Source: Escherichia coli (GTDB lineage: Bacteria; Pseudomonadota; Gammaproteobacteria; Enterobacterales; Enterobacteriaceae). From it: a stretch of 64,000 bases of DNA. Positions 8,070-41,549 of the stretch are shown here, piece after piece. The stretch lies in assembly GCF_044647545.1 (NCBI RefSeq), contig NZ_CP172818.1; one strand, given 5' to 3'. Numbering within the stretch: position 1 is the stretch's first letter; each line of letters begins with the position of its first letter. A program made the translations under genes and the position numbers. The notes under the pieces are model-generated. The model did not search any database. It was not told the DNA's origin and worked only from the letters and a program-made list of their open reading frames with translations.

Positions 8070-8507
<438 letters not shown>

Positions 8508-19546: not shown

Positions 19547-21649
19547 TCACTCAAATCGCCACGCAACATTCACGCCGATACCATAATTTCGTCCGGGCGC
19601 AGGTTCGTAATATCGCCCGTTTGACTCATTGACAATGACAGAACCAACGTATTCTTTATCGAATAAATTATCGACACGACCAAATAAATCCACGGTTAAA
19701 TTGTGGTAATTGTATTTATACCCGGTGAATAAGCCGACGAGTGTATAAGACGGCGCTTTTGCCGTATTTTCATCATCTGCCATAATATCGCCCATATAAC
19801 GCGCTTCCGTGCCTGCATACCAACCATCTTCCGGTATATAACCTATCGACGCAAAGCCCATATTACGGGCGATCCCTGGCATCCGGTTACCGTTACAATC
19901 CTGTTCATTGCAAACATTGCTGCGATAGGTCGCATCAAGCCAGGTCCAGGACGCTTTTACGCGAAAATCTCCCGCGAAACGTTGATCCCATGCCAGTTCA
20001 GCGCCTTGACGACGGGTCTTTCCGGCATTTTTGTAAGTCGTACGCCCACCGCTACTGCTATCGACAACAATTTCATCATCGGTGTCGGTCTGGAACAATG
20101 CGAGACTAAGCAGCCCATCACCAATACGCGTTTTACTGCCGATCTCAATTGTATCGTTGGTGGAGGGTTTTAACCCAAAGTTCATACCGCTTTGTCCATC
20201 AGCACGATAAGACAGCTCATTAATCGTCGGCGTTTCAAAACCTCGCCCGGCTGCCAGATAGATATTCCAGGCATCGGTCATTGCATATTTTAACGAACCG
20301 GCAGGTAGCCATTTGTGATAACTGGCATCACCGCTGTCATCGCCGTTACCCGGAGTAACGTAATGGTCGTTGGAATCAAACCACACGGAGCTGTAGCGCA
20401 CGCCAGCATCCAGCGACAGTTTTTCGCTCAGCTGCCACTGCGTCTGTAAATAGGGATCGACGTTCCACATCAGATTGCGTTCGTCGCGGCGCAACTCACC
20501 TTTTTGCCCGTATTCCGGCACGCCGCTATTCAGGCGGAAGTTATTGTAGCCCTTGCGGTTTTCACTCATGTTTTCGTAGTTCAGGCCGGTAGTGAACGTG
20601 AGCGGAACGCCCAGTTCACCACGGTGTGTCCAGCGGCTGTCTATCCCCTGATAATGGCGTTGCAGAGTAATCACGCCGCCCGCATGTGACGGGTTAAGTT
20701 GGGGAGCCATCGGGATTGACTGGTACTGGGTCGTTTCTCGCTCCCCGGCATACATCATCACACTCATCTCATCCCGCGAACTCAGGCTACGCTCATAGCG
20801 CAACCCAGCCTGAGTTTGCTTGATGGTTTTTCGCGTGTCGTACTGTTCAGCGCGTGGCGCTTGTTGCGGATTCGCCTTCCATTCTGCTTCGGTTAGCCCA
20901 CCTGGGTCATCTGCTTTGATATCCACACTATTGAAAATCAGGCTTAATTTGCTGGCGTCATCAATGCGTACGCCCAGTTTGGCATTGGCTAAATTTTTCT
21001 GTGCGCCACTATGGTCACGATAGCCGTGGGTCGTAAAACGCGTGGTTGAGACGGTGTAATCGACATCGCCAGGCTGTGTGCCGTCGCCCGTTGCGCCTGT
21101 TGCTTTCAGCCCATAGCGCCAGCTGCCAAAACTGCCGTAGTAACTACTGGCTTCAATGGTTGGTGGCTGTTGTCCGGTCTGGGTGATGACATTCATTACA
21201 CCGCCAGACGCGTTGCCATACAGAGCAGAGAAGGGGCCACGCAGCACTTCCACATTTTGCACACTGCTTAAATCGATGTTGGATGTTTGCCCTTGCCCGT
21301 CGGGCATGGTGGCGGGAATACCGTCCACATACAGGCGAATACCGCGAATTCCGTAAGTGGAGCGGGAGCCAAATCCGCGAATCGACAGCTGTAAATCTTG
21401 CGCATAGTTCTGCCGGTTTTGTACCTGCAAACCAGGCACGCCAGTCAGTGATTCAGACAAGTTAATGCGCGGTGTTGCCAGGCGCATCTCCTCGCCATCC
21501 ACCACGCTCACGGCTGCTGGGGTATCCAGTTCTGAAATCACCTGCGGCGCGGCACTGACAATCATGGTCTGTTCATCAGCGGCAAAAACAACGGGGGAAA
21601 GGACAAGCAGTGCGGGCAAAACGGTCTGTCGGACGGAAAAAATCTTCAT
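19547..21649 (-). CDS. yncD: TonB-dependent outer-membrane receptor YncD
   Basis: 700 aa; signal peptide, plug and beta-barrel, C-terminal aromatic residue (…NVAWRFE). Confidence 0.92.
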   Translation of the reverse strand: MKIFSVRQTVLPALLVLSPVVFAADEQTMIVSAAPQVISELDTPAAVSVVDGEEMRLATPRINLSESLTGVPGLQVQNRQNYAQDLQLSIRGFGSRSTYGIRGIRLYVDGIPATMPDGQGQTSNIDLSSVQNVEVLRGPFSALYGNASGGVMNVITQTGQQPPTIEASSYYGSFGSWRYGLKATGATGDGTQPGDVDYTVSTTRFTTHGYRDHSGAQKNLANAKLGVRIDDASKLSLIFNSVDIKADDPGGLTEAEWKANPQQAPRAEQYDTRKTIKQTQAGLRYERSLSSRDEMSVMMYAGERETTQYQSIPMAPQLNPSHAGGVITLQRHYQGIDSRWTHRGELGVPLTFTTGLNYENMSENRKGYNNFRLNSGVPEYGQKGELRRDERNLMWNVDPYLQTQWQLSEKLSLDAGVRYSSVWFDSNDHYVTPGNGDDSGDASYHKWLPAGSLKYAMTDAWNIYLAAGRGFETPTINELSYRADGQSGMNFGLKPSTNDTIEIGSKTRIGDGLLSLALFQTDTDDEIVVDSSSGGRTTYKNAGKTRRQGAELAWDQRFAGDFRVKASWTWLDATYRSNVCNEQDCNGNRMPGIARNMGFASIGYIPEDGWYAGTEARYMGDIMADDENTAKAPSYTLVGLFTGYKYNYHNLTVDLFGRVDNLFDKEYVGSVIVNESNGRYYEPAPGRNYGIGVNVAWRFE

Positions 21650-21781
21650 GAAAAAAGCCAGGTTAAGAATGGGAAAACGCCGTCATGGTAATAAAATTGT
21701 AAATTTATGGAAAACGAAACGGCACGATACGTTAAGTAATTGAGAAAATTGTAGTCGTAACGGCAAGAAATGCTCCACATT

Positions 21782-21804
21782 TGATAAAATAATGATTACC
21801 ATTC
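21782..21804. promoter_or_regulatory. Putative Fur box in the yncD-yncE divergent promoter region
   Basis: tgataaaataatgattaccattc matches about 13 of 15 core positions of the Fur consensus GATAATGATAATCATTATC; roughly 90 bp upstream of yncE. Confidence 0.55.
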
Positions 21805-21890
21805 CCATTTATAACAAAAGCGTAACGATGATTACGCTTAGCGAAGCATTGTGAAGCAGCAAAAATATCGGTTCATCAAAGGGAGTCGTC

Positions 21891-22952
21891 ATGCATTTAC
21901 GTCATCTGTTTTCATCGCGCCTGCGTGGTTCATTACTGTTAGGTTCATTGCTTGTTGCTTCATCATTCAGTACGCAGGCCGCAGAAGAAATGCTGCGTAA
22001 AGCGGTAGGTAAAGGTGCCTACGAAATGGCTTATAGCCAGCAAGAAAACGCGCTGTGGCTCGCCACTTCGCAAAGCCGCAAAGTGGATAAAGGCGGCGTG
22101 GTTTATCGTCTTGATCCGGTTACTCTGGAAGTGACGCAGGCGATCCATAACGATCTCAAGCCGTTTGGTGCCACCATCAATAACACGACTCAGACGTTGT
22201 GGTTTGGTAACACTGTAAACAGCGCGGTCACGGCGATAGATGCCAAAACGGGCGAAGTGAAAGGCCGTCTGGTGCTGGATGATCGTAAGCGCACGGAAGA
22301 GGTGCGCCCGCTTCAACCGCGTGAGCTGGTAGCTGATGATGCCACGAACACCGTTTACATCACTGGTATTGGTAAAGAGAGCGTGATTTGGGTCGTTGAT
22401 GGCGAGAATATCAAACTGAAAACCGCCATCCAGAACACCGGTAAAATGAGTACCGGTTTAGCGCTGGATAGCAAAGGCAAACGTCTTTACACCACTAACG
22501 CTGACGGCGAATTGATTACCATCGACACCGCCGACAATAAAATCCTCAGCCGTAAAAAGCTGCTGGATGACGACAAAGAGCACTTCTTTATCAACATCAG
22601 CCTTGATACCACCAATCAGCGTGCATTTATCACCGATTCTAAAGCGGCAGAAGTGTTAGTGGTTGATACCCGTAATGGCAATATTCTTGCGAAGGTTGCG
22701 GCACCGGAATCACTGGCTGTGCTGTTTAACCCAGCGCGTAATGAAGCCTACGTGACGCATCGTCAGGCAGGTAAAGTCAGTGTGATTGACGCGAAAAGCT
22801 ATAAAGTGGTGAAAACGTTCGATACGCCGACTCATCCGAACAGCCTGGCGCTGTCTGCCGATGGCAAAACGCTGTATGTCAGTGTGAAACAAAAATCCAC
22901 TAAACAGCAGGAAGCTACCCAGCCGGACGATGTGATTCGTATTGCGCTGTAA
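21891..22952 (+). CDS. yncE: Periplasmic beta-propeller (PQQ-like repeat) protein YncE
   Basis: 353-aa ORF with signal peptide. Confidence 0.9.
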   Translation: MHLRHLFSSRLRGSLLLGSLLVASSFSTQAAEEMLRKAVGKGAYEMAYSQQENALWLATSQSRKVDKGGVVYRLDPVTLEVTQAIHNDLKPFGATINNTTQTLWFGNTVNSAVTAIDAKTGEVKGRLVLDDRKRTEEVRPLQPRELVADDATNTVYITGIGKESVIWVVDGENIKLKTAIQNTGKMSTGLALDSKGKRLYTTNADGELITIDTADNKILSRKKLLDDDKEHFFINISLDTTNQRAFITDSKAAEVLVVDTRNGNILAKVAAPESLAVLFNPARNEAYVTHRQAGKVSVIDAKSYKVVKTFDTPTHPNSLALSADGKTLYVSVKQKSTKQQEATQPDDVIRIAL

Positions 22953-23035
22953 TAGATATGGCGAGGGTGAAAACGGAGAGACTTGCCTGACTTTTATCAC
23001 GCCGTATCCGGCACCTTCGTCAGTAATTTGAATTT

Positions 23036-23058
23036 GCCCGGCACGCAGCCGGGCAATT
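23036..23058. terminator. Hairpin between convergent yncE and ansP
   Basis: tgcccggc-acgca-gccgggca followed by ATTTTGCAATT. Confidence 0.5.
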
Positions 23059-23064
23059 TTGCAA

Positions 23065-24564
23065 TTAACTCGCCGTTTCAGGTTTAAACACAATTTCCTG
23101 TTTTTCTTCATCTTCCTCGACGACTGGCGCAGTGCTGTGAATTTCAGCAACGCGTTTGCGCACACCAAACCAGCCTATAACCAGCAGAATACCGATAATC
23201 GGCAGCGCCGCGATAGTATAAGTCCCGTTCGGGTAATCGAACGCCATCAGCACCAGAACACTCAGTAAAAACAGTAATGTCAGCCAGGAAGTGAAGGGCG
23301 CGCCAGGCAGTTTAAAACTGACATCCGCTGCTTTGCCTTCTTTAATCGCTTTACGCAGGCGCATCTGGCACACGATGATAAACGCCCATGAAGCGATGAT
23401 TCCCAGCGACGCGAAGTTCAACACAATCTCAAATACGCGCGACGGCACCAGATAGTTGAGGAATACGCCGACGACATACACAACCAGTGTCGCCAGAATC
23501 CCGGCATACGGCACATGCTGACGACTCATTTTCGCCATAAAACTCGGTGCGGAACCGCCCATCGCCATTGAGCGCAGAATGCGTCCGGTGCAGTACAGAC
23601 CTGAATTCAGGCTGGAGAGGGCAGCGGTCAGCACCACAATGTTCATAATGCTGCCGATATATGGCACACCCAGTTTAGAGAAAAACGTCACGAACGGACT
23701 TTGCCCCGCCTGATACGCGCTCCACGGCAATAACATAACCAGCAACACCACGGAGCCGACGTAAAACAGGCCAATACGCCAAATCACACTGTTAATGGCT
23801 TTAGGCACCATGGTCTGCGGATCTTTACATTCTCCGGCAGCTGTCCCCACCATTTCAATGGAGGCAAAAGCAAACACTACGCCCTGAATCAACACCAGCG
23901 CAGGCAGCAAACCGTGGGGGAAGAAGCCGCCATTATCGGTGATTAAATGAAAGCCAGTGGTGTTGCCATCCAGCGGCTGACCACTACCGAGGAACACTGT
24001 ACCCACGACCAAAAAGGTCACAATGGCGAGCACTTTAATAAGCGCAAACCAGAACTCCATCTCCGCAAACCATTTCACACCGATCATATTCATGGTGCCA
24101 ACGATGGTAAGTGCAGCGAGCGCAAAGACCCACTGCGGCACGCCGCCAAACGCACCCCAGTAATGCATATACAGAGCGACGGCGGTAATATCAACAATCC
24201 CCGTCATCGCCCAGTTGATGAAGTACATCCAGCCAGCAACATAAGCGGCTTTCTCACCCAAAAACTCACGGGCATAAGAGACAAAACTGCCACTGGAAGG
24301 GCGGTGTAGCACCAGCTCACCCAATGCACGCAGAATAAAAAACGAAAACAAGCCACAAATTAAATAAACCAGTGCCAGTGCTGGACCCGCCATTTGCAGT
24401 CGGGCTCCTGCACCTAAAAACAAGCCGGTGCCAATCGCGCCGCCAATGGCGATCATCTGTACCTGGCGATTGCCCATCGCTTTGTGATACCCCTCTTCGT
24501 GGGCATTAAGCCAGCGGCGTTTCGCGGCGTGTTGATCTGAAGTGTCGGTGTCGTGTTTACTCAT
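23065..24564 (-). CDS. ansP: L-asparagine permease AnsP (APC family)
   Basis: Track ORF 23065..24615; internal start MSKHDTDTSD (GGGAGAG RBS) gives 499 aa; about 12 TM segments. Confidence 0.92.
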   Translation of the reverse strand: MSKHDTDTSDQHAAKRRWLNAHEEGYHKAMGNRQVQMIAIGGAIGTGLFLGAGARLQMAGPALALVYLICGLFSFFILRALGELVLHRPSSGSFVSYAREFLGEKAAYVAGWMYFINWAMTGIVDITAVALYMHYWGAFGGVPQWVFALAALTIVGTMNMIGVKWFAEMEFWFALIKVLAIVTFLVVGTVFLGSGQPLDGNTTGFHLITDNGGFFPHGLLPALVLIQGVVFAFASIEMVGTAAGECKDPQTMVPKAINSVIWRIGLFYVGSVVLLVMLLPWSAYQAGQSPFVTFFSKLGVPYIGSIMNIVVLTAALSSLNSGLYCTGRILRSMAMGGSAPSFMAKMSRQHVPYAGILATLVVYVVGVFLNYLVPSRVFEIVLNFASLGIIASWAFIIVCQMRLRKAIKEGKAADVSFKLPGAPFTSWLTLLFLLSVLVLMAFDYPNGTYTIAALPIIGILLVIGWFGVRKRVAEIHSTAPVVEEDEEKQEIVFKPETAS

Positions 24565-24830
24565 TGCTCTCCCTGATTGCTTTAATGAAAAAGTCATATA
24601 AGTTGCCATGAACAATGTTTATTCATCCTGGCGATGATAGTTATCACCATTATTCTTTATGGGTATAAAACTATCGGCGCAGCATCCTACCCGTTATCGA
24701 TAAACGATGCAAAACATCCCCTTACAATCCTGAAGGGGAATAATACAACTGACGAAAAAATGACAAATCCTTTTGCTGGTTAACCTGTGTACTGTCCTAC
24801 ACTTAATCTTTAAAAGATTGTGAGGGGCAT

Positions 24831-25448
24831 ATGATTAAGGTGTATGGCGTACCCGGATGGGGCTCTACAATCAGTGAGCTGATGCTAACACTGGCTGATA
24901 TTCCTTATCAGTTCTTTGATGTCAGTGGTTTTGACCACGAGGGAACTTCACGCGAGTTATTGAAAACCCTGAACCCGTTGTGTCAGATTCCGACACTGGC
25001 GCTGGAAAATGACGAGATTATGACGGAGACAGCGGCGATTGCATTGATGGTTCTCGATCGTCGCCCGGACCTTGCGCCACCGGTTGGGCGCGCCGAACGT
25101 CAGCAGTTTCAACGGCTATTGGTCTGGCTGGTTGCTAATGTCTATCCAACATTCACTTTCGCCGATTACCCTGAGCGTTGGGCTCCTGACGCACCTGAAC
25201 AGTTAAAGAAGAATGTTATTGAATATCGAAAATCGCTTTATATCTGGTTGAATTCGCAGCTCACTGCTGAACCTTATGCGTTTGGTGAGCAACTAACGCT
25301 GGTGGACTGTTATCTTTGCACTATGCGCACATGGGGGCCTGGGCATGAATGGTTTCAGGATAATGCCACGAATATCAGTGCGATTGCTGATGCTGTATGT
25401 CAGTTACCGAAATTACAAGAAGTATTAAAAAGGAATGAAATTATTTGA
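24831..25448 (+). CDS. yncG: Glutathione-S-transferase-like protein YncG
   Basis: 205-aa ORF. Confidence 0.85.
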   Translation: MIKVYGVPGWGSTISELMLTLADIPYQFFDVSGFDHEGTSRELLKTLNPLCQIPTLALENDEIMTETAAIALMVLDRRPDLAPPVGRAERQQFQRLLVWLVANVYPTFTFADYPERWAPDAPEQLKKNVIEYRKSLYIWLNSQLTAEPYAFGEQLTLVDCYLCTMRTWGPGHEWFQDNATNISAIADAVCQLPKLQEVLKRNEII

Positions 25449-25523
25449 GTGGGATACCAGAAGATTATGTTATTTATTATTCAGTAACTTTATCCACAAT
25501 GATGGGCGTAATTAATTAAATTC

Positions 25524-25736
25524 ATGTTATGTTTTTTAATTTATATCACTCTCCCTTTCATTCAGCTTGTCTATTTCATTTCCTCTGAAAAGAAACTAAC
25601 TATTCACATTGTGCAGATGTTTCAGTTGTTATCACAGGTATTCTATAATCTCAAAATGTTTTTAATGATGGATATGCTCGGAGTTGGAGATGCAATTAAT
25701 ATTAATACAAATAAAAATATCCGGCAGGTATGCTAA
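25524..25736 (+). CDS. yncH: Small hypothetical protein YncH (doubtful)
   Basis: 70-aa ORF in a very AT-rich stretch; no recognisable motif. Confidence 0.4.
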   Translation: MLCFLIYITLPFIQLVYFISSEKKLTIHIVQMFQLLSQVFYNLKMFLMMDMLGVGDAININTNKNIRQVC

Positions 25737-26474
25737 AAGGATAAATGGCGTTCTCTGTATTTATTCGCAATTATCTGTAGGACAAATATGGAGAGCTTGA
25801 TGAGTCAGAGCTAAAACAGCAATTGATTAATAAACATGTTGATTTATTCAAGAAAATGGATGTATTTTAAATATTGATTCTTAATATAACCTAATCAATA
25901 GATTATCACGTGAGAGCTGCACATTATTGGAGGGGCAGGGGAAAACACCATTTTGGGAACAATGCATCAGGTACTCTTACCACTGAAGCAAGATCATCCG
26001 GGCACCAGGTGGTGGTGCAGTGCTTTGGAAATGGTCCCCTCGGGGGAGTTGTCATTATTTTCTATGCTATTTGCTTATTATATTCATCAGGTGAATTTAA
26101 TAAATTCCTAATTTGAAATATCCACTATTAAGCCAGTGTTTAACGACGTTAAGATGGCAATGTGCAGATCATGTTATCAGGGTGGGGCGGTAGCGTATAT
26201 TCCTTATACAAACCATCATTCATTTCAATGATTGTTATTGAATTATTTATTGTTGTGAATAAAAAGACATTATGAATATTGGTTTGACTTTGCATATCAG
26301 GTTTTTTATTACTCGCTGTAATGTACGAGCCTGTCGTGAATAACGTCGAGAACCCATCCGTTGCGTTTGTGATTATTTTGTTGACTAAACAGACACCCGT
26401 TTCTCTGAAGTAAAATCCCAGACTAAATCATCACATAACCATGACATTTTTCTGATATTCCCCGGTAACGCCAG

Positions 26475-28108
26475 ATGTCGACTCGCTTATCCACCCTCAG
26501 CCATACCAGTGAAGGCCACCGCGTGTCGGTCCACTACGGCTATGACGATAAAGGCCGCCTGACCGGCGAACGCCAGACGGTGGAGAACCCGGAGACGGGG
26601 GAACTGCTGTGGCACCATGAGACCGGACATGCGTACAACGAACAGGGGCTGGCAAACCGCGTCACGCCGGACAGTCTGCCGCCGGTGGAGTGGCTGACCT
26701 ACGGCAGCGGCTATCTTGCGGGCATGAAGCTGGGCGGGACGCCGCTGCTGGAGTTCACGCGCGACCGCCTGCACCGTGAGACGGTGCGCAGCTTCGGCAG
26801 CATGGCAGGCAGTAATGCCGCATATAAACTGACCAGCACATACACCCCCGCAGGCCAGTTACAGAGCCAGCACCTGAACAGCCTGGTGTATGACCGTGAC
26901 TACGGGTGGAATGACAACGGCGACCTGGTGCGCATCAGCGGCCCGCGACAGACGCGGGAATACGGCTACAGCGCCACGGGCAGGCTGGAGAGTGTGCGCA
27001 CCCTCGCACCAGACCTGGACATCCGCATCCCGTATGCCACGGACCCGGCGGGCAACCGGCTGCCGGACCCGGAGCTGCACCCGGACAGTACACTCACAGT
27101 GTGGCCGGATAACCGCATCGCGGAGGATGCGCACTATGTCTACCGCCACGATGAATACGGCAGGCTGACGGAGAAGACGGACCGCATCCCGGCGGGTGTG
27201 ATACGGACGGACGACGAGCGGACCCACCACTACCACTACGACAGCCAGCACCGCCTGGTGTTCTACACGCGGATACAGCATGGCGAGCCACTGGTCGAGA
27301 GCCGCTACCTCTACGACCCGCTGGGACGGCGAATGGCAAAACGGGTCTGGCGGCGGGAGCGTGACCTGACGGGGTGGATGTCGCTGTCGCGTAAACCGGA
27401 GGTGACGTGGTATGGCTGGGACGGAGACAGGCTGACGACGGTGCAGACTGACACCACACGTATCCAGACGGTATACGAGCCGGGAAGCTTCACGCCGCTC
27501 ATCCGGGTCGAGACAGAGAACGGCGAGCGGGAAAAAGCGCAGCGGCGCAGCCTGGCAGAGACGCTCCAGCAGGAAGGGAGTGAGAACGGCCACGGCGTGG
27601 TGTTCCCGGCTGAACTGGTGCGGCTGCTGGACAGGCTGGAGGAAGAAATCCGGGCAGACCGCGTGAGCAGTGAAAGCCGGGCGTGGCTTGCGCAGTGCGG
27701 GCTGACGGTGGAGCAACTGGCCAGACAGGTGGAGCCGGAATACACACCGGCGCGAAAAGTTCATTTTTACCACTGCGACCACCGGGGCCTGCCGCTGGCG
27801 CTCATCAGCGAAGACGGCAATACGGCGTGGCGCGGGGAGTATGATGAATGGGGCAACCAGCTTAATGAGGAGAACCCGCATCACCTGCACCAGCCGTACC
27901 GTCTGCCAGGGCAGCAGTATGATAAGGGAGTCGGGCTGGTACTTATAACCGTCACCGGTACTACGATCCGTTGCAGGGGCGGTATATCACCCGGGACCCG
28001 ATTGGGTTGAGAGGTGGATATGGATATGTATCAGTATCCGTTGAATCCCATACAAGTGATAGACCCAATGGGGTTAGATGCGATTGAGAATATCATAATA
28101 TCAGGCTA
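26475..28108 (+). pseudogene. rhsE: Rhs element remnant (rhsE): C-terminal part of the Rhs core with two frameshifts and a 10-aa tip
   Basis: YD repeats ([24 protein letters not shown]). Near 27935 the conserved end [25 protein letters not shown] is in another frame; frame returns for [16 protein letters not shown] (PxxxxDPxGL) followed by only [10 protein letters not shown] before the stop. GC-rich core against AT-rich flanks. Confidence 0.85.
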
Positions 28109-29200
28109 ATTAATTTATGCCGTATCTGGTGTACCTGGATTGATTGCTGCAAACAGCATTACTAACAGTGCTTACCAGTTCGGTTATGATATGGATGCTA
28201 TTGTTGGCGGAAGCTCATAATGGGGCCGCCGATGCAATGAGACATATCGTCACTTGATGTGTCGAATGACTAAGACATTTGGATCAAACAATAGCTGACG
28301 TGATAGGAAAAATCATGAGGCGGCAGGGATAACAAGGTCAGCCAGCTAAAGAAAAGTAATCATGGATCTAAAAAATAACACTGTCGGTATTGCTTGTGGC
28401 GATTTTTGGCCAAATGTAGCGATGATGTATTGTAAAATATAACACTGGGAAAACTCTTCGGGTTAGATGGTATAAAAGCAGATAACTCCAATAAAAACAA
28501 AGCAAGGGAGTTTCAGACGCTTCAAATTATTAGAGGCAAACTTGTCATTTTTTTTAATTACCCTTTGTTTATTTGTTGTTTACAATCTTCTGGGTTTGAT
28601 AACAATTCAAATTCTTGATATTGTCATTTTATGGACATAAATACCTAAAGAGCGTTGAGATATCTTTCTGAAAAAAATATTATTTATAAAATAATTAATG
28701 ACCAAAAAATTAGTAGAGGGAATGGTCATTTTATAAGTATAATGGTTAATAATTACAGGACGCACTGTGGAGTGGTTGATAAACTTAATTTTTTCAATGA
28801 TATTCTTTATAGCGTGCGATTAAAAAACATTAAAGCAAACTTGCAGAATATGGAGTTCTGCGCTAAAAAATAATGCGTATTTTAGTGATAAAAACAAGAA
28901 GGCTAGTTATAAAATAATTAATTATGGAGAACTATCACGATGTTGATTATTATGATAACAATTTGAAAAATGAAGCTTTTTGACTGGATTGGTAAATGGT
29001 CATAATGAACAACACCAGAAAGTAGAAAAATATAAAATACATACAGAAGATACTAGAAGCAAGGGACGGGCAGGGCAATATTATGAAAATTGTGATGTAA
29101 AATCACGATTTTCATCTTGGCTTGAACGCTAGCAGGCTATTAAAATTTAACCTTTGGATAAATGGAAAAAGATAAAAAAGGACCAAGTGATATTTTAAGT
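28109..29200 (+). other. AT-rich region of decayed short ORFs downstream of the Rhs tip
   Basis: Fragments such as VSGVPGLIAANSITNSAYQFGYDMDAIVGGSS and the 72-aa ORF 28655..28873; nothing intact. Interpretation as toxin/immunity remnants is inference from Rhs locus architecture. Confidence 0.35.
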
Positions 29201-29204
29201 TTGC

Positions 29205-30135
29205 TTGATTATATTTAGCTATCTCTATATACGACAACAAGGAAGCTTAAACATAAATCTATCCGCTATTTTGTTTCTCACCGTATGTGAGAATTGCGAG
29301 GCCCATGAGTGGCAGGAAATTGAAGATTTTGGACATGAAAGACTTGAATGGCTAAAGAAATATGGTGATTTTGATAATGGGATTGCGGTCGATGACACCA
29401 TTGCACGCGTTGTGAGTAACATTGACAGTTTGGCCTTTGGAAGATGTTTATTGAATGGATGCAGGAGTGCCATGAAATCACTGATGGTGAAATTATAGCA
29501 ATAGATGGAAAGACCATAAGAGGCTCCTTTGATAAGGAAAGAAAAGGAGCAATCCATATGGTGAGTGCATTCTCAACCAAATGGTGTTGTACTCCGGCAG
29601 GCGAAACGGAAGCCAAAAGTAATGAGATTACAGCCATTCCACAGTTGCTTAACCTACTGTATTTAAAGAAAATTTTGATAACCATCGACGCTATGGGCTG
29701 TCAGAAAGATATCGCTTCGAAGATTAAAAGATAAAAAAGCAGATTATCTTCTGGCAGAAAAGGCAATCAGGGGAAATTACATCATGCATTCGAGGAAAAA
29801 TTTCCTGTAAATGTGTTTTCTAATTATAGGCGATTCGTTTAGTACGCAGGAGATAGTCATGGAAGAAAAGAAACACGTTTTCATATTGTAGTAACGTAAC
29901 GCCTGAACTTTTGTGATTTTGAATTCAATGGAAGGGATTAAAAAAGCTTTGTGTAGCATTGTCATTCAGGCAGAAGAAAGAAGATAAATCAGCAGAAGGT
30001 GTAAGCATCCGATACTATATTTCATCAAAGGATATGGATGCTAAAGAATTTGCACATGCTATCAGAGCGCACTGGCTGATCGAGCACAGTCTTCATTGGG
30101 TGTTAGATGTAAAAATGAATGAAGATGCCGCCGGA
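29205..30135 (+). pseudogene. yncI: H-repeat-associated (ISAs1-family) transposase remnant (yncI-like), multiply disrupted
   Basis: Fragments ([38 protein letters not shown]; IIAIDGKTIRGSFDKERKGAIHMVSAFS...; C-terminal [20 protein letters not shown]) parallel the adjacent ydcC copy but are broken by stops and frameshifts. Confidence 0.7.
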
Positions 30136-30397
30136 TAAGAAGAGGAAACGCAGCCTAAATAATATCTGGAATAAAGAAGATGGCACTGAATTTATTAAGA
30201 GATTGCAAAGACATTAAGGGTGAAGAGGAAAAGAAAGAAGGCTGCGTTAAACACAGGGAAAGATCATCAGAAGTTCACTTTTTGTACTAAATAATTCGCA
30301 TTTTATGTTTAAAAATTGAGATATTCCTCATTACCTGAAGCTGTTTTTTATTGCTTATACATGATCAAATACTCCTTACATAATTAAGGAGAACAAA

Positions 30398-31533
30398 ATG
30401 GAACTTAAAAAATTGATGGAACATATTTCTATTATCCCCGATTACAGACAAGCCTGGAAAGTGGAGCATAAATTATCGGACATTCTACTGTTGACTATTT
30501 GTGCCGTTATTTCTGGTGCAGAAGGCTGGGAAGATATAGAGGATTTTGGGGAAACACATCTCGATTTTTTGAAGCAATATGGTGATTTTGAAAATGGTAT
30601 TCCTGTTCACGATACCATTGCCAGAGTTGTATCCTGTATCAGTCCTGCAAAATTTCACGAGTGCTTTATTAACTGGATGCGTGACTGCCATTCTTCAGAT
30701 GATAAAGACGTTATTGCAATTGATGGAAAAACGCTCCGGCACTCTTATGACAAGAGTCGCCGCAGGGGAGCGATTCATGTCATTAGTGCGTTCTCAACAA
30801 TGCACAGTCTGGTCATCGGACAGATCAGGACGGATGAGAAATCTAATGAGATTACAGCTATCCCTGAACTTCTTTACATGTTGGACATTAAAGGAAAAAT
30901 CATCACAACTGATGCGATGGGTTGCCAGAAAGATATTGCAGAGAAGATACAAAAACAGGGAGGTGATTATTTATTCGCTGAAAATGAAACCAGGGGCGGC
31001 TAAATAAAGCCTTCGAGGAAAAATTTCCGCTGAAAGAATTAAATAATCCAGAGCATGACAGTTACGCAATGAGTGAAAAGAGTCACGGCAGAGAAGAAAT
31101 CCGTCTTCACATTGTTTGCGATGTCCCTGATGAACTTATTGATTTCACGTTTGAATGGAAAGGTCTGAAGAAATTATGCGTGGCAGTCTCCTTTCGGTCA
31201 ATAATAGCAGAACAAAAGAAAGAGCCAGAAATGACGGTCAGATATTATATCAGTTCTGCTGATTTAACCGCAGAGAAGTTCGCCACAGCAATCCGAAACC
31301 ACTGGCACGTGGAGAATAAGCTGCACTGGCGTCTGGACGTGGTAATGAATGAAGACGACTGCAAAATAAGAAGAGGAAATGCAGCAGAATTATTTTCAGG
31401 GATACGGCACATCGCTATTGATATTTTGACGAATGATAAGGTATTCAAGGCAGGGTTAAGACGTAAGATGCGAAAAGCAGTCATGGACAGAAACTATCTG
31501 GCGTCAGTCCTTGCGGGGAGCGGGCTTTCGTAA
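30398..31533 (+). pseudogene. ydcC: H-repeat-associated (ISAs1-family) transposase YdcC, split by a single frameshift near 30995
   Basis: ORFs 30398..31003 (201 aa) and 31069..31533 (154 aa) are the N- and C-halves; the joining segment [31 protein letters not shown] reads in a different frame. Confidence 0.8.
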
Positions 31534-31718
31534 TCTTTCCCTGGAGTGGCAAAGAACTGGTGGTGAATAATCCCGTTATTAGCAGACTTTTAACAATATG
31601 ATTAAGCTGCATCTTAAGCGTCTCCAGAATGGACTTTTATTGGGGGTATTTACGGATAAAAATTTTTGTGAGGGGAAAAATAAATATAATGGGCGTTAAT
31701 AAATTGGCAAGCCGGGAA

Positions 31719-31787
31719 TTTTTTTTTTTTTAATGGCATGTTGGCAAAAAATATATTCTGCAAGTTTTTTTTTTTGGCTTTTTTTTT
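31719..31787. repeat. Three homopolymeric T tracts (T13, T11, T9) within about 70 bp
   Basis: Read directly: ...gggaa t13 aatgg..., ...caag t11 ggc t9 aaaagg...; between the ydcC end and pptA. Confidence 0.9.
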
Positions 31788-31912
31788 AAAAGGGTGTAAA
31801 ACAAACCTGTACAAATTCAAGTAGGCATTATTGCCGTAAAAAAGCATCACCGGACACATAACATTCACAACGTGTGTTAATTTTACTGACATCTTTCAAA
31901 AGGAGCACAATC

Positions 31913-32140
31913 ATGCCGCACATAGACATTAAATGTTTTCCACGTGAACTGGACGAACAACAAAAAGCAGCACTTGCTGCAGATATTACCGACGTTATTA
32001 TTCGCCATCTGAACAGTAAAGACAGTTCGATAAGCATTGCTCTACAGCAGATTCAACCAGAATCATGGCAAGCTATCTGGGACGCCGAAATTGCGCCCCA
32101 AATGGAGACGCTGATAAAGAAACCTGGTTACAGCATGTAA
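31913..32140 (+). CDS. pptA: 4-oxalocrotonate-tautomerase-family protein PptA
   Basis: Track ORF 31874..32140; start at MPHIDIKCF gives 75 aa with the catalytic N-terminal Pro. Confidence 0.85.
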
Positions 32141-32143
32141 TGC

Positions 32144-32713
32144 TTAACCTGCCGTAACACGCTTGCCGCTGGTAACAAACGTGCCAGCGCCTAAATGATG
32201 CAACGTATTGAGCTTATCATCATCAAACTGCCAGCGGCCTTCGACAAATACCCGTGCGTCTGCCGCTGCTGATACCACTTCGCCAAACAGCGTGTCGTAT
32301 TTTTCTTGCGCAGAAGTCGCAGGTAGCAGGCGACACTCCATCCACGCCAGACATTTTTCCTCGACCAGCGGCAAACCAAGCACCGGACCTTTCACAACCG
32401 GAATACCATAGCAGTTAAACTTATCTTCATCACGCCCCGACACACTTCCCACCGCCCACGTCCAGTTAGTCGCCGCAACGCCTGGGATAACGATGCCAAA
32501 TTTACCGTTACGCTCAATCAACTCCCTGGTCCATGTCGATTTATCTACCACAATCGCCACGCGTGGCGGTTCAAACTCTACGGGCATAGACCAGGCTGCT
32601 GCCATAATGTTACGCCGCTGGGATTGCTCATCGAAACTGGTGATCATGACAGTTGGGCCATGATTTAACAGACGGCTGGCATGGTGTAATTCGACGGGAA
32701 TGAATTGGCTCAC
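32144..32713 (-). CDS. yddH: Flavin-reductase-like protein YddH
   Basis: 189-aa ORF. Confidence 0.88.
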   Translation of the reverse strand: MSQFIPVELHHASRLLNHGPTVMITSFDEQSQRRNIMAAAWSMPVEFEPPRVAIVVDKSTWTRELIERNGKFGIVIPGVAATNWTWAVGSVSGRDEDKFNCYGIPVVKGPVLGLPLVEEKCLAWMECRLLPATSAQEKYDTLFGEVVSAAADARVFVEGRWQFDDDKLNTLHHLGAGTFVTSGKRVTAG

Positions 32714-32887
32714 GATATCGCCTCGCTATGAAGGGTGTTTTAAAAGCGTAGCTCGTAACGCAATAAGTAACGAAATTAACGGGATTGGCGATTTGCGAAC
32801 GTGATGCATGTCCGCGATCGCACAAAATAGCCAGTGCGGCGTCTATTCCAGGTTATAAGTTGAGAAAACCACTAAGGGAAACGCCTG

Positions 32888-33733
32888 ATGACGCCCATTC
32901 TGAATCACTATTTTGCCCGTATTAACTGGTTGGGAGCTGCTGCGGCCAATATTGATACGCTGCGTGCATTGCACCTGAAACACAATTGCACCATTCCGTT
33001 TGAAAATCTCGACGTTTTGCTGCCGAGGGAAATACAGCTTGATGATCAATCGCTGGAAGAGAAACTGGTGATAGCCCGTCGTGGCGGTTACTGTTTTGAG
33101 CAGAATGGCGTGTTTGAGCGTGTGTTACGCGAGCTGGGGTTTAACGTTCGCAGCTTGTTAGGGCGCGTAGTGTTATCAAATCCGCCAGCATTACCGCCGC
33201 GCACCCATCGTTTGCTGTTGGTGGAACTGGAAGGGGAAAAATGGATTGCTGATGTCGGTTTCGGTGGGCAGACGCTAACCGCGCCGATTCGTTTAATGCC
33301 GGATATCATGCAAACCACGCCACACGGAGAGTATCGGTTGTTGCAAGAGGGTGATGATTGGGTGTTGCAGTTTAATCATCATCAGCACTGGCAGTCGATG
33401 TACCGTTTTGATCTCTGCGAGCAGCAACAAAGCGATTATGTGATGGGCAATTTCTGGTCGGCGCATTGGCCGCAGTCGCATTTTCGCCATCATTTGCTGA
33501 TGTGTCGCCATTTGCCGGACGGTGGCAAGCTGACACTGACCAATTTTCATTTTACCCATTATGAAAATGGGCACGCAGTTAAGCAGCGAAATCTACCAGA
33601 TGTGGCGTCGTTATATGCCGTGATGCAGGAACAGTTTGGTCTGGGCGTAGATGATGCGAAACATGGCTTTACTGTGGATGAGTTAGCGCTGGTGATGGCG
33701 GCGTTTGATACGCACCCGGAGGCGGGAAAATAA
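32888..33733 (+). CDS. nhoA: Arylamine N-acetyltransferase / N-hydroxyarylamine O-acetyltransferase NhoA
   Basis: 281 aa; catalytic Cys context RRGGYCFEQN. Confidence 0.93.
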   Translation: MTPILNHYFARINWLGAAAANIDTLRALHLKHNCTIPFENLDVLLPREIQLDDQSLEEKLVIARRGGYCFEQNGVFERVLRELGFNVRSLLGRVVLSNPPALPPRTHRLLLVELEGEKWIADVGFGGQTLTAPIRLMPDIMQTTPHGEYRLLQEGDDWVLQFNHHQHWQSMYRFDLCEQQQSDYVMGNFWSAHWPQSHFRHHLLMCRHLPDGGKLTLTNFHFTHYENGHAVKQRNLPDVASLYAVMQEQFGLGVDDAKHGFTVDELALVMAAFDTHPEAGK

Positions 33734-33744
33734 TTTATGTCAGG

Positions 33745-33825
33745 TTGCCGGATGTGGCGTAAATGCCTAATCCGGCATACATTAGTCCGGTTGTAGGCCT
33801 GATAAGCGAAGCGCATCAGGCAACG
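33745..33825. repeat. REP/BIME cluster between nhoA and yddE
   Basis: tgccggatgtggcgtaaatgcctaatccggc ... gtaggcctgataagcgaagcgcatcaggca, a classic REP palindrome pair. Confidence 0.75.
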
Positions 33826-33828
33826 GTT

Positions 33829-34722
33829 TCAGAGTTCAATTGCCCATTCGGCATGAAACAAAATCACCGCCGTGCCAGAAATGGTGACTTTCTCCGGTTG
33901 GTTATCACGAATTGTCACCGTCACTTCAATCACGCCTTCACGCCCTAATGCGCGCCCCTGATGGCCTTTAACACGCAACACGTTGCCATCGTGTGGCAAT
34001 ACGTTGTGATGTACTAACCATGCACCCATCGGGCCATTGGCATTGCCAGTCACCGGATCTTCCACAATACCAATCGCAGGCGAGAACATGCGACCATCGG
34101 TTTCGTTTTTGCCTGGGCGGATCTGGAACGGGAAGAAACCATTGCAGCCAATCTGTTTGCTGATTGTGGTCAGCGCAGCAAGGTCAGGCGAAAGGGCGTC
34201 GATATCCACTTCCGGCTTCAGTGGAATCATCACTTTTGAGTGTCCTGTGGTAGCCACCTGGATTGGCAAGCCTTGCAAAATATCGTCTTCAGTGAGATGA
34301 AGCGCGTTGATAATCGCTGCACGTGTTTCACCTTTCAGCGGTGGCTCAAAGCCTGGAGTACCTTGTTCCAGCGAAATACGATAATCATCATTTTGCTTTT
34401 CGATAGTCACACGATGTTTTCCTGCCAGCGACGTTTGCCAGACGGTGCAATTTCCTAAACCTAACACCTTTGCACGTACATAGTGCGCAGCTACTGTCGC
34501 GTGACCACAAATCGGAACTTCAACCGTTGGCGTAAAGTAGCGGATGCGCACATCGCTGTCGTCGCTGTGCAGCAGAAAAGCAGTTTCCGAATGACCTAAC
34601 TCGCGGGCGATAAGCTGCATTTGCGCTTCGCTAAGATTATCGGCGGGGAAAACAACACCGGCAGAATTGCCGCGAAACGGTTGAGAGGTAAAAGCATCGA
34701 CGTGGTAAACCTGCGGTTTCAT
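33829..34722 (-). CDS. yddE: PhzF-family isomerase-like protein YddE
   Basis: 297-aa ORF. Confidence 0.9.
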   Translation of the reverse strand: MKPQVYHVDAFTSQPFRGNSAGVVFPADNLSEAQMQLIARELGHSETAFLLHSDDSDVRIRYFTPTVEVPICGHATVAAHYVRAKVLGLGNCTVWQTSLAGKHRVTIEKQNDDYRISLEQGTPGFEPPLKGETRAAIINALHLTEDDILQGLPIQVATTGHSKVMIPLKPEVDIDALSPDLAALTTISKQIGCNGFFPFQIRPGKNETDGRMFSPAIGIVEDPVTGNANGPMGAWLVHHNVLPHDGNVLRVKGHQGRALGREGVIEVTVTIRDNQPEKVTISGTAVILFHAEWAIEL

Positions 34723-34801
34723 TAATGTTCTCCTGTGGCTGGAGAACTATCATAGCCTGCAAGTGGCCGGAGAGCGAAGAGCTATCCGGCCCGCGAGAGA
34801 A

Positions 34802-35482
34802 TTAACGCCGCGAACGCACAATCTGATACCGACGAGTAAAGTACTCAAACGGCGCGCTCCAGACATGCACCAGTCGGGTGAACGGGAAGAGCAGAAAGAT
34901 GGTCATTCCAAGCACCAGATGAACGCGGAATATAAAGGCGACACCATCAAGATGCGTAGATGCACCGCCCTGGAAAGTGACAATGCTTTGCGCCCAGCCC
35001 ACCAGCTTCATCATTTCACTGCCGTCCGGATGTTGTGCTGAAAAAGGAATGGTGGTTAACCCAAGAATGCACTGAATTAACAAAATAGCGAGGATCAGGA
35101 TATCCGCACCAGAAGACGTCGCCCTGATACGCGGATTTGTTAAACGACGCACCAGTAGCCCCGCACCGCCAATCAGCGTCAATACCCCGCATATTCCGCC
35201 GAGGATCATCGCCATTAGTTGTTTCGCTGCCACTGGCAAAAACCACGCGTACATCCAGTGCGGCGTTAACATGCCGAACAGGTGCCCGAAGAAAATCCCC
35301 AAAATGCCGATATGGAACAGATTCGACCACAGCACCATACCACGTTTATCCAGCATCTGGCTGGAGGCGGCGCGCCAGGTATACTGCCCGTAATCGTAGC
35401 GCAGCCAGCTTCCAAGGATAAAAACCGTGCCACACAAGTACGGGTAGATATCGTAAAAAAAGACGTTCAGATACTGAATCAT
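34802..35482 (-). CDS. narV: Nitrate reductase Z gamma subunit (cytochrome b) NarV
   Basis: 226-aa hydrophobic ORF; last gene of narZYWV. Confidence 0.92.
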
Positions 35483-36174
35483 TTCCCACCTCCCGCACTG
35501 ATGTCGACATACTGCGGCGCGACATCCTGGCTAAAGCGTCGCTGATATTGATTAAGCGGCGAGCTGTCACACGCCGTGGCGTTATCTTCAATAAACTTCA
35601 CCTGTTCTTCTTCCCACACCGCATCCAGCGCCTGGCGGGTGTCGTCACGCTCTTCACTGCGAATCTGTTTTGTGACGCTGTCACTTGACAGAGGGCTTCC
35701 TGCCAGTTGCAACAGGGTGTCAAATAACGCGTACCACGGTGCCTCGCGTTGTTTTAAGCGTCCGCCAAGCAGGGCGAGGATCGGCGCAACGTTGAGCAAG
35801 CCTTCTTTCGCCTGATCGTCCGGCAGTACGCTTAAGTACTCCAGATACAGCGGCAGATAATCGGGCAGTTCTCGACAATCCAACTGCAGACCGACCTTTT
35901 CATACTCCGCCAGCAGGTCCACCATTGCCTGGCCGCGATCGCGGGACTCGGCATGAACATGTTCGAACAGCAGCAGCGATGTGGTACGTCCACGGTCAAA
36001 CACTTCGCACCATTCGGCCTGTTTATCCAGCAGCGGCGCGTTAAGCAGGTTGCGGGTAAAATCCGTAAGCATCGGTGCGTCGCGGCGGATCAACGCCAGC
36101 GCGTCCTCCTTACATTCCCACAACAGCTCGTCCGGATACTCCATCAACAGGCCGATCACTTTGAGGATCTGCAT
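35479..36174 (-). CDS. narW: Nitrate reductase Z assembly chaperone NarW
   Basis: 231-aa ORF overlapping narV by 4 nt. Confidence 0.92.
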
Positions 36175-37718
36175 TATTCGCCCTCCGCTTTGTCGCGCAC
36201 TTCGGTGATGTTGATGGCATCGATACGGCTACTGTTGAACAGGTTGAATTTGCTGTCCGAGCCGTGGCAACCGTCGCCAAAGGTAAAACCGCAGCCGTTG
36301 CGTTCTGCGAAGGCATCGCCCGCCATTTCCCGATGGCTTGTCGGGATGACAAAACGGTCTTCATAGTTGGCAATGGCGAGGTAACGATACATCTCTTCGA
36401 CCTGGGCGACGCTCAGACCTACTTCGTCGATGGCACGAGTATCAGTAACGCCTTCCACGGTTTGTGAACGCATATAGTGGCGCATCGCCATCATCCGTTT
36501 CAGCGCCCGCAGTACCGGACCGGTATCACCGGCACTCAACATATTGGCGAGATATTGCACCGGAATACGCAGGCTTTCGATGGCGGGCAGCACGCCTTCG
36601 CTTTTCGGCAAACCTCCCGCATCAGCGTAGGACTGAATCGGTGACAGCGGCGGAACGTACCAGACCATCGGCAGAGTGCGGTATTCAGGGTGCAGCGGTA
36701 GCGCCAGTTTCCAGTCCATTGCCATTTTGTAGACTGGCGAACGCTGGGCAGCGTCAATCACGTTTTGTGGAATACCTTGTTTCAGGGCTTCCTCGATCAC
36801 CGAGGGATCGTGCGGATCGAGGAACACTTCGCACTGGCGTTCATAGAGGTCAACTTCGCGCTCGGTGCTCGCCGCTTCCTCGATGCGGTCGGCGTCGTAA
36901 AGCAGCACGCCCAGATATCGGATGCGACCCACGCAGGTTTCTGAGCACACGGTGGGTTGGCCTGACTCAATTCGTGGGTAACAGAAGATGCATTTTTCTG
37001 ACTTGCCGCTTTTCCAGTTGAAGTAGATTTTTTTGTACGGACAACCGCTAATGCACAAACGCCAGCCACGGCATTTATCCTGATCAATCAGCACAATGCC
37101 GTCTTCTTCACGTTTGTAGATAGCACCGCTTGGGCAGGTCGCCACGCAGCTGGGATTGAGGCAGTGTTCGCACAGGCGCGGCAGGTACATCATGAACGTG
37201 TTTTCAAACTGCCCGTACATCTCCTTTTGCATGGCCTCGAAGTTGCGGTCGCGGGCGCGTTTTTCAAATTCGCCGCCCAACAATTCTTCCCAGTTTGGCC
37301 CCCAGATCACTTTGTCCATCCGTTTGCCGTCAATCAGTGAACGCGGGCGCGCAGTAGGAATATGTTTACCTTCTGGCGCGCTATGCAAATGTTCGTAGTC
37401 GAAGGTGAAAGGTTCGTAGTAATCATCAATCTGCGGCACCACCGGGTTGGCGAAGATTTTGGTAATCACGCCCATCTTGCTGCCCAGACGCGGGCGGATC
37501 TTGCCATTCACATCACGCACCCAGCCGCCTTGCCACTCTTCCTGATCTTCCCAGTTTTTCGGATAACCAATGCCCGGTTTGGTTTCGACGTTGTTAAACC
37601 ATGCGTACTCCATGCCTTCGCGTCTGGTCCAGACGTTTTTACAGGTCACCGAACAGGTATGGCAGCCGATACATTTATCGAGGTTAAGCACCATGCCGAC
37701 TTGCGAACGTATTTTCAT
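36174..37718 (-). CDS. narY: Nitrate reductase Z beta (Fe-S) subunit NarY
   Basis: 514 aa; ferredoxin-type Cys clusters CIGCHTCSVTC and CEHCLNPSCVATCPSGA. Confidence 0.95.
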   Translation of the reverse strand: MKIRSQVGMVLNLDKCIGCHTCSVTCKNVWTRREGMEYAWFNNVETKPGIGYPKNWEDQEEWQGGWVRDVNGKIRPRLGSKMGVITKIFANPVVPQIDDYYEPFTFDYEHLHSAPEGKHIPTARPRSLIDGKRMDKVIWGPNWEELLGGEFEKRARDRNFEAMQKEMYGQFENTFMMYLPRLCEHCLNPSCVATCPSGAIYKREEDGIVLIDQDKCRGWRLCISGCPYKKIYFNWKSGKSEKCIFCYPRIESGQPTVCSETCVGRIRYLGVLLYDADRIEEAASTEREVDLYERQCEVFLDPHDPSVIEEALKQGIPQNVIDAAQRSPVYKMAMDWKLALPLHPEYRTLPMVWYVPPLSPIQSYADAGGLPKSEGVLPAIESLRIPVQYLANMLSAGDTGPVLRALKRMMAMRHYMRSQTVEGVTDTRAIDEVGLSVAQVEEMYRYLAIANYEDRFVIPTSHREMAGDAFAERNGCGFTFGDGCHGSDSKFNLFNSSRIDAINITEVRDKAEGE

Positions 37719-40700: not shown

Positions 40701-41455
40701 GCGATGATGTAACTGGAGTTATACCAGTCGGCAGATTCCGGCACGTCGGTTTGTTCGCCCCAGGTCATCGGCGAGGCGGGCGGCAGGTCGCAATACCAGT
40801 CGTAGAAGCTTAAACAGGTGCCACCTAACAGCGACAGATAACGTGTTCCGGCGGCGTAAGAAACCATCGACATCGCCGGGATCGGCGAGAAACCGGCAAC
40901 GCGATCCGGGCCGTAAGTTTTGATGGTCCAGACGTTAGCAGCGGCAATCAGCTGGTTTAGCTCCTGCCAGTTGGAGCGGATAAAGCCGCCGCGTCCACGT
41001 ACTTGTTTGTAGCTCAGGCACTTTTGCGGATCGTTCATAATCGATGCCCACGCCAGTACCGGATCGCTGTGTTGCTTGAGGGCTTCGCGCCACAGTTCAA
41101 TCAGTCGTTTACGAATGAGCGGGTATTTCAGACGGTTAGCGCTGTAGAGATACCAGGAGTAACTTGCGCCACGCGGGCAGCCGCGAGGTTCATGATTGGG
41201 CAGGTCAGGGCGAGTGCGCGGGTAGTCGGTCTGTTGGATTTCCCAGGTCACCAGACCATTTTTAACGTAGATTTTCCAGCTACAGGAGCCTGTACAGTTA
41301 ACACCGTGGGTGGAACGCACGATTTTGTCGAACTGCCAACGCTGGCGATAGCTGTCCTCCCAGTCGCGGTTGCTATGCATCACCTGTCCGTGACCATCGG
41401 CAAAGGTTTCGCCCTTTTGTTTGAAGTAGCGAAAGCGATCCAAAAGTTTACTCAT
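37715..41455 (-). CDS. narZ: Nitrate reductase Z alpha (molybdopterin) subunit NarZ
   Basis: Track ORF 37715..41578; internal start MSKLLDRFRYFKQKGETF (GGAG RBS) gives 1246 aa. Confidence 0.95.
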   Translation of the reverse strand: MSKLLDRFRYFKQKGETFADGHGQVMHSNRDWEDSYRQRWQFDKIVRSTHGVNCTGSCSWKIYVKNGLVTWEIQQTDYPRTRPDLPNHEPRGCPRGASYSWYLYSANRLKYPLIRKRLIELWREALKQHSDPVLAWASIMNDPQKCLSYKQVRGRGGFIRSNWQELNQLIAAANVWTIKTYGPDRVAGFSPIPAMSMVSYAAGTRYLSLLGGTCLSFYDWYCDLPPASPMTWGEQTDVPESADWYNSSYIIAWGSNVPQTRTPDAHFFTEVRYKGTKTIAITPDYSEVAKLCDQWLAPKQGTDSALAMAMGHVILKEFHLDNPSDYFINYCRRYSDMPMLVMLEPRDDGSYVPGRMVRASDLVDGLGESNNPQWKTVAVNTAGELVVPNGSIGFRWGEKGKWNLESIAAGTETELSLTLLGQHDAVAGVAFPYFGGIENPHFRSVKHNPVLVRQLPVKNLTLADGNTCPVVSVYDLVLANYGLDRGLEDENSAKDYAEIKPYTPAWGEQITGVPRQYIETIAREFADTAHKTHGRSMIILGAGVNHWYHMDMNYRGMINMLIFCGCVGQSGGGWAHYVGQEKLRPQTGWLPLAFALDWNRPPRQMNSTSFFYNHSSQWRYEKVSAQELLSPLADASKYSGHLIDFNVRAERMGWLPSAPQLGRNPLGIKAEADKAGLSPTEFTAQALKSGDLRMACEQPDSGSNHPRNLFVWRSNLLGSSGKGHEYMQKYLLGTESGIQGEELGASDGIKPEEVEWQTAAIEGKLDLLVTLDFRMSSTCLFSDIVLPTATWYEKDDMNTSDMHPFIHPLSAAVDPAWESRSDWEIYKGIAKAFSQLCVGHLGKETDVVLQPLLHDSPAELSQPCEVLDWRKGECDLIPGKTAPNIVAVERDYPATYERFTSLGPLMDKLGNGGKGISWNTQDEIDFLGKLNYTKREGPAQGRPLIDTAIDASEVILALAPETNGHVAVKAWQALGEITGREHTHLALHKEDEKIRFRDIQAQPRKIISSPTWSGLESDHVSYNAGYTNVHELIPWRTLSGRQQLYQDHPWMRAFGESLVAYRPPIDTRSVSEMRQIPPNGFPEKALNFLTPHQKWGIHSTYSENLLMLTLSRGGPIVWISETDARELTIVDNDWVEVFNANGALTARAVVSQRVPPGMTMMYHAQERIMNIPGSEVTGMRGGIHNSVTRVCPKPTHMIGGYAQLAWGFNYYGTVGSNRDEFIMIRKMKNVNWLDDEGRDQVQEAKK

Positions 41456-41489
41456 GACATAACTCCTGCTCCAGGAATGAATTGGGATC

Positions 41490-41545: not shown

Positions 41546-41549
41546 TCTC

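Follow-up and report, generated by a model that had tools for sequence, protein, structure and literature searches.

What lies between yncH and pptA in the Escherichia coli chromosome NZ_CP172818.1 (assembly GCF_044647545.1), and why is it broken? In the stretch of this chromosome that was analysed (64,000 nucleotides, hereafter the window), the site holds the end of an Rhs gene followed by AT-rich DNA with short, broken open reading frames (ORFs). A previous reading of the letters and their ORFs, hereafter the sequence-only reading, described an Rhs remnant with a 10-residue tip and two compensating frameshifts, followed by eroded orphan toxin and immunity cassettes. To judge by its sequence, the element is the long-known truncated RhsE of K-12-type genomes, comprising rhsE', ydcD, yncO and two ISAs1/H-repeat copies. 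Its short tip of 10 residues, the frameshifts that offset each other and the decayed ORFs are probably consensus errors in a chimeric assembly. All coordinates are positions in the 64-kb window, and the K-12 reference is the MG1655 record, compared by BLAST.

The genes of the window run in the order pqqU(fhuE)-yncE-ansP-yncG-yncH, the RhsE segment, two ISAs1 copies, pptA, yddH and nhoA. The features at the end of the Rhs core are the following.

26475 to 28010, plus strand: rhsE remnant, a 511-aa ORF that covers the C-terminal ~40% of the Rhs YD-repeat core (from the ORF list and the RHS_core match).
27926 to 27945, no strand: four 1-bp indels (+G, -G, +G, +T; net +2), from a three-way alignment with K-12 and AH01 (NZ_CP055251.1).
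28021, no strand: +1 (T) insertion at which the original frame is regained, 76-95 nt downstream of the 27926-27945 cluster.
28047 to 28076, plus strand: core-end motif PxxxxDPxGL, here [10 protein letters not shown], located after the stop codon of the ORF.

The GC-rich YD-repeat core was correctly recognized by the sequence-only reading. The 511-aa ORF at 26475-28010 has a GC content of 0.62-0.67 and matches the NCBIfam model RHS_core (NF041261) at model positions 734-1216 of 1261, with 1055.8 bits against a cutoff of 2000; the YD-repeat model TIGR01643 likewise matches, in keeping with a YD-repeat core (beta-cocoon). Since the RHS_core match begins at model position 734, the ORF represents the C-terminal part of an Rhs core. 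The N-terminal region for loading on a type VI secretion system (T6SS), that is, the PAAR/VgrG-interacting part and the first ~60% of the core, is missing, and upstream of 26491 lies backbone sequence common to genomes of sequence type 648 (ST648). Comparison with K-12 and ST648 places the start of the Rhs core at 26492, behind a junction (26491) that is the same as in K-12. The ATG and the first five codons of the ORF are themselves backbone, found too in ST648 genomes without rhsE, and the apparent start of 'rhsE' is thus a fusion made at the island junction (26475-26491). A single A/T polymorphism lies 1 bp from this junction.

From 26492 to 27917 the core is 100% identical to K-12 rhsE, with zero differences. 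The indel cluster at 27926-27945 then puts it out of frame, and the ORF runs into a TGA (28008-28010) before the frame is restored. The sequence-only reading was right that the core leaves its frame and returns to it, but instead of two indels about 75 nt apart there are four 1-bp indels (net +2) plus the +1 at 28021. In enterobacterial Rhs proteins, PxxxxDPxGL marks the end of the core (PMC3150448). The motif that had been reported, [10 protein letters not shown], and the residues that had been said to follow it, [10 protein letters not shown], do occur at 28047-28076 and 28077-28106, the latter followed by a TAA stop (28107-28109); the motif nevertheless lies outside the core ORF, separated from it by the out-of-frame stretch and the TGA.

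Beyond the core end, GC content falls to 0.26-0.46 across 28100-29300 and only short, broken ORFs are found, a description that had been given before and that holds. Alignment to K-12 resolves this stretch into the following features.

28077 to 28533, plus strand: remnant of the RhsE C-terminal (toxin) domain, DUF6973 type, found by tblastn with K-12 RhsE; 11 frameshifting and 1 in-frame indel.
28517 to 29005, plus strand: remnant of ydcD (YdcD family, presumed immunity gene), found by tblastn; start codon ATG changed to ACG; 7 frameshifting and 2 in-frame indels.
28918 to 29106, minus strand: remnant of yncO, a small ORF annotated in K-12; recovered from the K-12 annotation and as tblastn fragments; broken.
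29187 to 30312, plus strand: first ISAs1-family/H-repeat copy, a pseudogene already in K-12.

The absence of an attached toxin domain had been claimed, and this is true of the ORF alone; yet the DNA of a DUF6973-type domain follows at 28077-28533, shredded by frameshifts. In place of a variable C-terminal (CT) toxin domain there is a broken remnant of the K-12 RhsE-CT, with a stop after 10 codons. The K-12 RhsE tip matches Pfam DUF6973 (E = 2.7e-12), and when the K-12 codons are projected on the window and indels are ignored, 139 of 153 tip residues are identical (91%). The same projection finds 146 of 161 residues identical for ydcD (91%), whose K-12 product scores 215 bits against NCBIfam YdcD_fam (NF050020). 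Where a cognate immunity gene would be expected downstream, the window has this ydcD homologue without a start codon and with 7 frameshifting indels; the immunity role of YdcD is presumed from the position of its gene. Taken together, tip and ydcD contain ~18 frameshifts, and the window copy could make neither the toxin nor YdcD. A T run at 28548, in the 5' part of ydcD, shows a natural length polymorphism (T7/T8): K-12 has T7 and an intact ydcD, while AH01 and the window have T8, and ydcD of AH01 is annotated as frameshifted.

The homology to toxin and immunity families that the sequence-only reading proposed to look for in 28109..29200 is present, in the form of DUF6973 (K-12 tip) and YdcD_fam (K-12 YdcD, the presumed immunity protein), both found via the colinear K-12 genes. 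Its eroded orphan cassettes are real insofar as toxin and immunity coding sequence is present and broken; rather than separate cassettes, they are the continuation of the same gene, plus ydcD. That the locus is a toxin-less Rhs stub, whose tip was cut back to 10 residues and behind which separate orphan cassettes for toxin and immunity have eroded, is what the ORF structure says at face value; rhs genes are known to be followed by orphan Rhs-CT/immunity modules in other cases (PMC3150448, PMC3967940), and AH01 has this very module as an orphan within a T6SS island. We nonetheless consider this account highly unlikely, as 28077-29005 is colinear base for base with a single K-12 rhsE 3' end plus ydcD, and neither a second core fragment or PxxxxDPxGL motif that would define an extra cassette nor an unrelated CT-immunity pair is found there. 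Nor do cassettes extend to 29200, as had been supposed: from 29187 onwards there is, just as in K-12, an ISAs1/H-repeat pseudogene. The K-12 counterpart of 29187-30312 (yncI) is annotated 'ISAs1 family transposase, frameshifted; internal stop', and the window copy adds 14 small deletions and 1 insertion, up to 30130. The broken stretch hence runs to 30130, past the limit of 29200 that had been set for it.

If the element is a familiar one, the question becomes how this copy came to be so damaged. The damage is confined to one segment, which was analysed in a three-way alignment of 2,239 columns between the window, K-12 and the AH01 copy of the same module.

27926 to 30130, no strand: noisy patch, with 179 private differing columns and 41 indel runs.

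Differences specific to the window occupy 179 of the 2,239 columns, whereas K-12 has 7 of its own and AH01 has 1, an excess that neither chance nor natural variation comes close to. The 41 indel runs (19 insertions, 22 deletions) stand against ~15 isolated substitutions, and only 12 of 26 single-base indels adjoin the same base, roughly the level of random placement. The ratio of transitions to transversions among the isolated substitutions is 5:10, which differs from the 55:23 and 97:33 seen between the window flanks and K-12 (Fisher p = 0.002); past 30130, differences between window and K-12 are ordinary substitutions again. Natural divergence in E. coli is rich in transitions, and natural indels prefer homopolymers and repeats. 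The patch shows neither of these features, and its mutation spectrum is thus not natural.

This bears directly on genuine pseudogene decay, in which the K-12-type RhsE tip, ydcD and the first H-repeat would have eroded neutrally, either in place or in a recombination donor lineage. Several observations speak for such a history. RhsE is already a non-functional remnant in K-12, where the neighbouring ISAs1 copy is a pseudogene; the edges of the patch lie in repeated sequence (core end, H-repeat) that could serve as recombination substrate; the underlying allele is a natural one of non-MG1655 type; and the divergence of the patch, 6-8%, is by estimate little more than phylogroups of E. coli would be expected to differ at synonymous sites. 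An indel-to-substitution ratio >1, a transition-to-transversion ratio of 1:2 and the lack of both homopolymer preference and deletion bias count against decay, as does the distribution of the damaged copy in public data, and we regard it as unlikely.

Among 5,426 complete E. coli genomes, of which 2,434 carry the module, none matches the patch at >94.0% identity. The module also occurs on 27 overlapping metagenome contigs, where its identity to K-12 is 99.4-99.9% and each copy has 0-2 gap openings, save for one low-coverage contig with 6. The window copy is 92.6-94.4% identical to these metagenome copies, with 66-69 gap openings on the full-length ones. The 27 metagenome and 2,434 genome copies are thus nearly identical to each other, without intermediates. 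In a pattern scan of metagenome and species-representative genome collections, a 30-mer specific to the patch was absent, whereas an intact 28-mer at its left edge was found on 29 metagenome contigs. Two patch ORFs (P0001 and P0003, from the first ISAs1 copy) are public proteins, WP_400165251.1 and WP_400165252.1, known from one and the same 4,499,902-bp contig only, while the undamaged adjoining ISAs1 ORFs are found on 117 and 110 contigs. For decay, this means that the flanks show 0 differences, up to the junction, from a clone sampled >100 times, and that the patch has been seen once. A literature search on rhsE/ydcD yielded no useful paper.

The chromosome around the patch is of another type altogether. 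Compared with the ST648 strain FDAARGOS_497 (NZ_CP033850.1), the window is 100.000% identical over 1-2052 and 3492-26491, 99.84% identical over 30254-44306 and 99.985% identical over 44613-64000. Between the same two junctions, FDAARGOS_497 carries VgrG, ISEc1 and a hypothetical gene, and an ST648-type yncH flank joined to an rhsE core occurs in no complete genome. Every difference between the window and ST648 falls at a structural difference between ST648 and K-12-type genomes; besides the RhsE locus, these are the following.

2052 to 3492: IS609/insQ (TnpB family), at its K-12 position between ydcL and ydcO; the site is empty in close ST648 relatives.
31544 to 31824: ST648-only 280-bp insertion upstream of pptA, present in the window.
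Near 44306: ST648 643-bp segment missing, with a K-12-like junction.
Near 44613: ST648 1,539-bp segment missing, with a K-12-like junction.
Edge at 50878: K-12-only 323-bp segment, absent as in ST648.

Two of these sites are themselves degraded. In IS609/insQ, the left ~400 bp is low-complexity sequence that can barely be aligned, and the rest has 22 deletions and 0 insertions; its best match among the 5,426 genomes is 93%, although 3,241 of them have the element at this site. The 280-bp insertion has 22 private changes at 31649-31800, nearly all of which replace G/C or mixed sequence by long stretches of T or A, and the closest match among complete E. coli genomes reaches 93.6%. In the yddL porin/leucine-rich-repeat region (44296-44621), K-12-like junctions are found with ST648 alleles across both and without noise, and no complete genome matches 44100-44800 contiguously at >96.9%. 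At 50878, a 1-bp deletion in an A run, the sole difference from ST648 in ~19 kb, sits exactly at the edge of the 323-bp segment. Structural variants of at least 643 bp follow the K-12-like layout and those of at most 323 bp follow ST648, a sorting by size that is expected from reads of one strain placed on the scaffold of another, or from a long-read assembly in which two strains collapsed. The record that carries the patch ORFs has 4.50 Mb, and the complete ST648 genomes listed span 4.94-5.31 Mb; the former size is more easily reconciled with a K-12-like scaffold than with an ST648 genome.

Decay at the RhsE locus would not account for the comparably dense private damage at two further sites of structural variation within the window, and it would require that K-12-type segments be precisely retained inside an otherwise identical ST648 background. 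A process that attacks such segments specifically can be imagined: an ST648-type strain might have gained K-type segments (RhsE, IS609) at their K-12 positions and then have had them scrambled by a context-free, indel-rich hypermutation that spared native DNA. This would agree with the sharp edges of the damage and with its restriction to segments that are absent from close relatives. We know of no bacterial process that introduces context-free insertions, deletions and transversions at ~8% over kilobases, and both the clean K-12-like junctions with ST648 alleles and the size-sorting of the structural variants would be left unexplained; real localized hypermutation is scarcely credible.

The noise-like spectrum, the restriction to a single public contig and the same kind of damage at other ST648-versus-K-12 sites instead point to an artefact of assembly, not to the evolutionary erosion that the sequence-only reading had assumed. 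We propose that the deposited chromosome would be a chimera of ST648-type bases on a K-12-like large-scale structure, which could have arisen by reference-guided reconstruction or by a long-read assembly that collapsed two strains. Small differences would have been corrected from the reads of one strain, while its large insertions could not be added to the scaffold; segments present in the scaffold only would keep little or no valid read support and receive base calls of very low quality. The template at this locus (26491-30254) would have been a K-12-type RhsE element with truncated core, DUF6973 tip, ydcD, yncO and ISAs1 pseudogene. The homology of the element, the private and noise-like spectrum of its damage and the co-location of the anomalies with structural variants are observed; we infer the assembly procedure itself, and also that in the real strain this locus holds the VgrG island of ST648 type.

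It is important to point out what weighs against an assembly artefact. It has been deduced, not observed directly, and the record passed RefSeq annotation, its proteins having received WP_ accessions. The template is not MG1655, as the window has the AH01 allele at 7 of 8 sites that distinguish K-12 from AH01; with a non-K-12 allele at 7/8 diagnostic sites, MG1655 itself was rejected as reference or contaminant. As it stands, the explanation accounts neither for the shift from insertions, dominant before ~29100 (18:8), to deletions, dominant after it (1:14; p = 1e-4), nor mechanistically for the error-free sequence at 26492-27925 beside 2.2 kb of noise. Finally, the edits in the H-repeat do not appear to have been copied from paralogous ISEc1-type/ISAs1 copies, a source that was rejected because agreement at the informative columns (11-12 of 45) is at about chance level.

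RhsE has long been known as a defective Rhs element, and the window copy teaches us nothing new about Rhs toxins. Its practical value lies in quality control: in a public, RefSeq-annotated E. coli chromosome (the 4,499,902-bp contig), bases of ST648 type seem to have been put together with a K-12-like structure and filler of low quality. Records of this kind give rise to false pseudogenes, false unique proteins and false calls of gene content, and in the present case RhsE replaces a probable VgrG island. Scans for decayed genes should check whether relatives share the damage and whether its spectrum looks natural.

The second ISAs1 copy of the window lies outside the noisy patch.

30398 to 31533, plus strand: second ISAs1 copy (ydcC/ISEc1-like), with ORFs of 201 aa and 154 aa split by one frameshift.

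ST648 genomes have an identical copy. Both ISAs1/H-repeat copies align to ISAs1 genes, and NCBI names their ORFs ISAs1 family transposase.

How does the locus compare with known systems? The closest counterpart is the K-12 RhsE element (rhsE pseudogene b1456, ydcD, yncO, the H-repeat pseudogene yncI, and ydcC), which occupies the same site between yncH and pptA and shares the left junction at 26491. Window positions 20299-31544 are colinear with yncG-yncH-rhsE'-ydcD-yncO-ISAs1'(yncI)-ydcC of K-12, and the gene order remains that of K-12 through pptA, yddH and nhoA. The window differs in its ~180 private columns and 41 indel runs, which destroy the tip, ydcD, yncO and the first H-repeat, and in its surrounding chromosome, which is of ST648 type. 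The ST648-type allele (VgrG, ISEc1, a hypothetical gene and ISAs1) agrees with the window in its flanks, which are identical as far as 26491 and again from 30254, and has the second ISAs1 copy too; between the flanks, the ST648 genome compared has a 4.6-kb VgrG island and the window a 3.76-kb RhsE segment. The ST648 yncH-pptA locus contains an apparently intact VgrG gene, a copy of ISEc1 and a 150-aa hypothetical gene (3421-7718 of the NZ_CP033850.1 stretch compared), a different island that occupies this insertion point behind the same left junction.

In its architecture, the element also recalls the orphan Rhs-CT/immunity modules (Poole et al. 2011, PMC3150448; Koskiniemi et al. 2014, PMC3967940), in which PxxxxDPxGL likewise closes a piece of core, a variable CT and then a small gene come next, and there is no part for delivery. 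The PxxxxDPxGL boundary and the arrangement of CT, immunity gene and orphans correspond to those of Poole et al. 2011 (PMC3150448), and for Salmonella orphans, expression after recombination with a full-length rhs has been shown (PMC3967940). Unlike those loci, the window has no full-length rhs upstream, and it holds one module, not a series of cassettes. Without the N-terminal 60% of Rhs, even the intact K-12 RhsE, as far as its gene tells, has no way of being loaded on a type VI secretion spike; by analogy, it resembles an orphan core-end/CT/immunity module that would be expressible only after recombination with a full-length rhs. In AH01 (4149-8398 of the NZ_CP055251.1 stretch compared), a module of core end, DUF6973 tip, ydcD and ISAs1 lies in a T6SS-associated island by yafV, downstream of other rhs fragments, and is 99.6% identical to the K-12 RhsE copy. 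This identity indicates that one module occurs at different loci and is extremely conserved, both across E. coli and in metagenomes.

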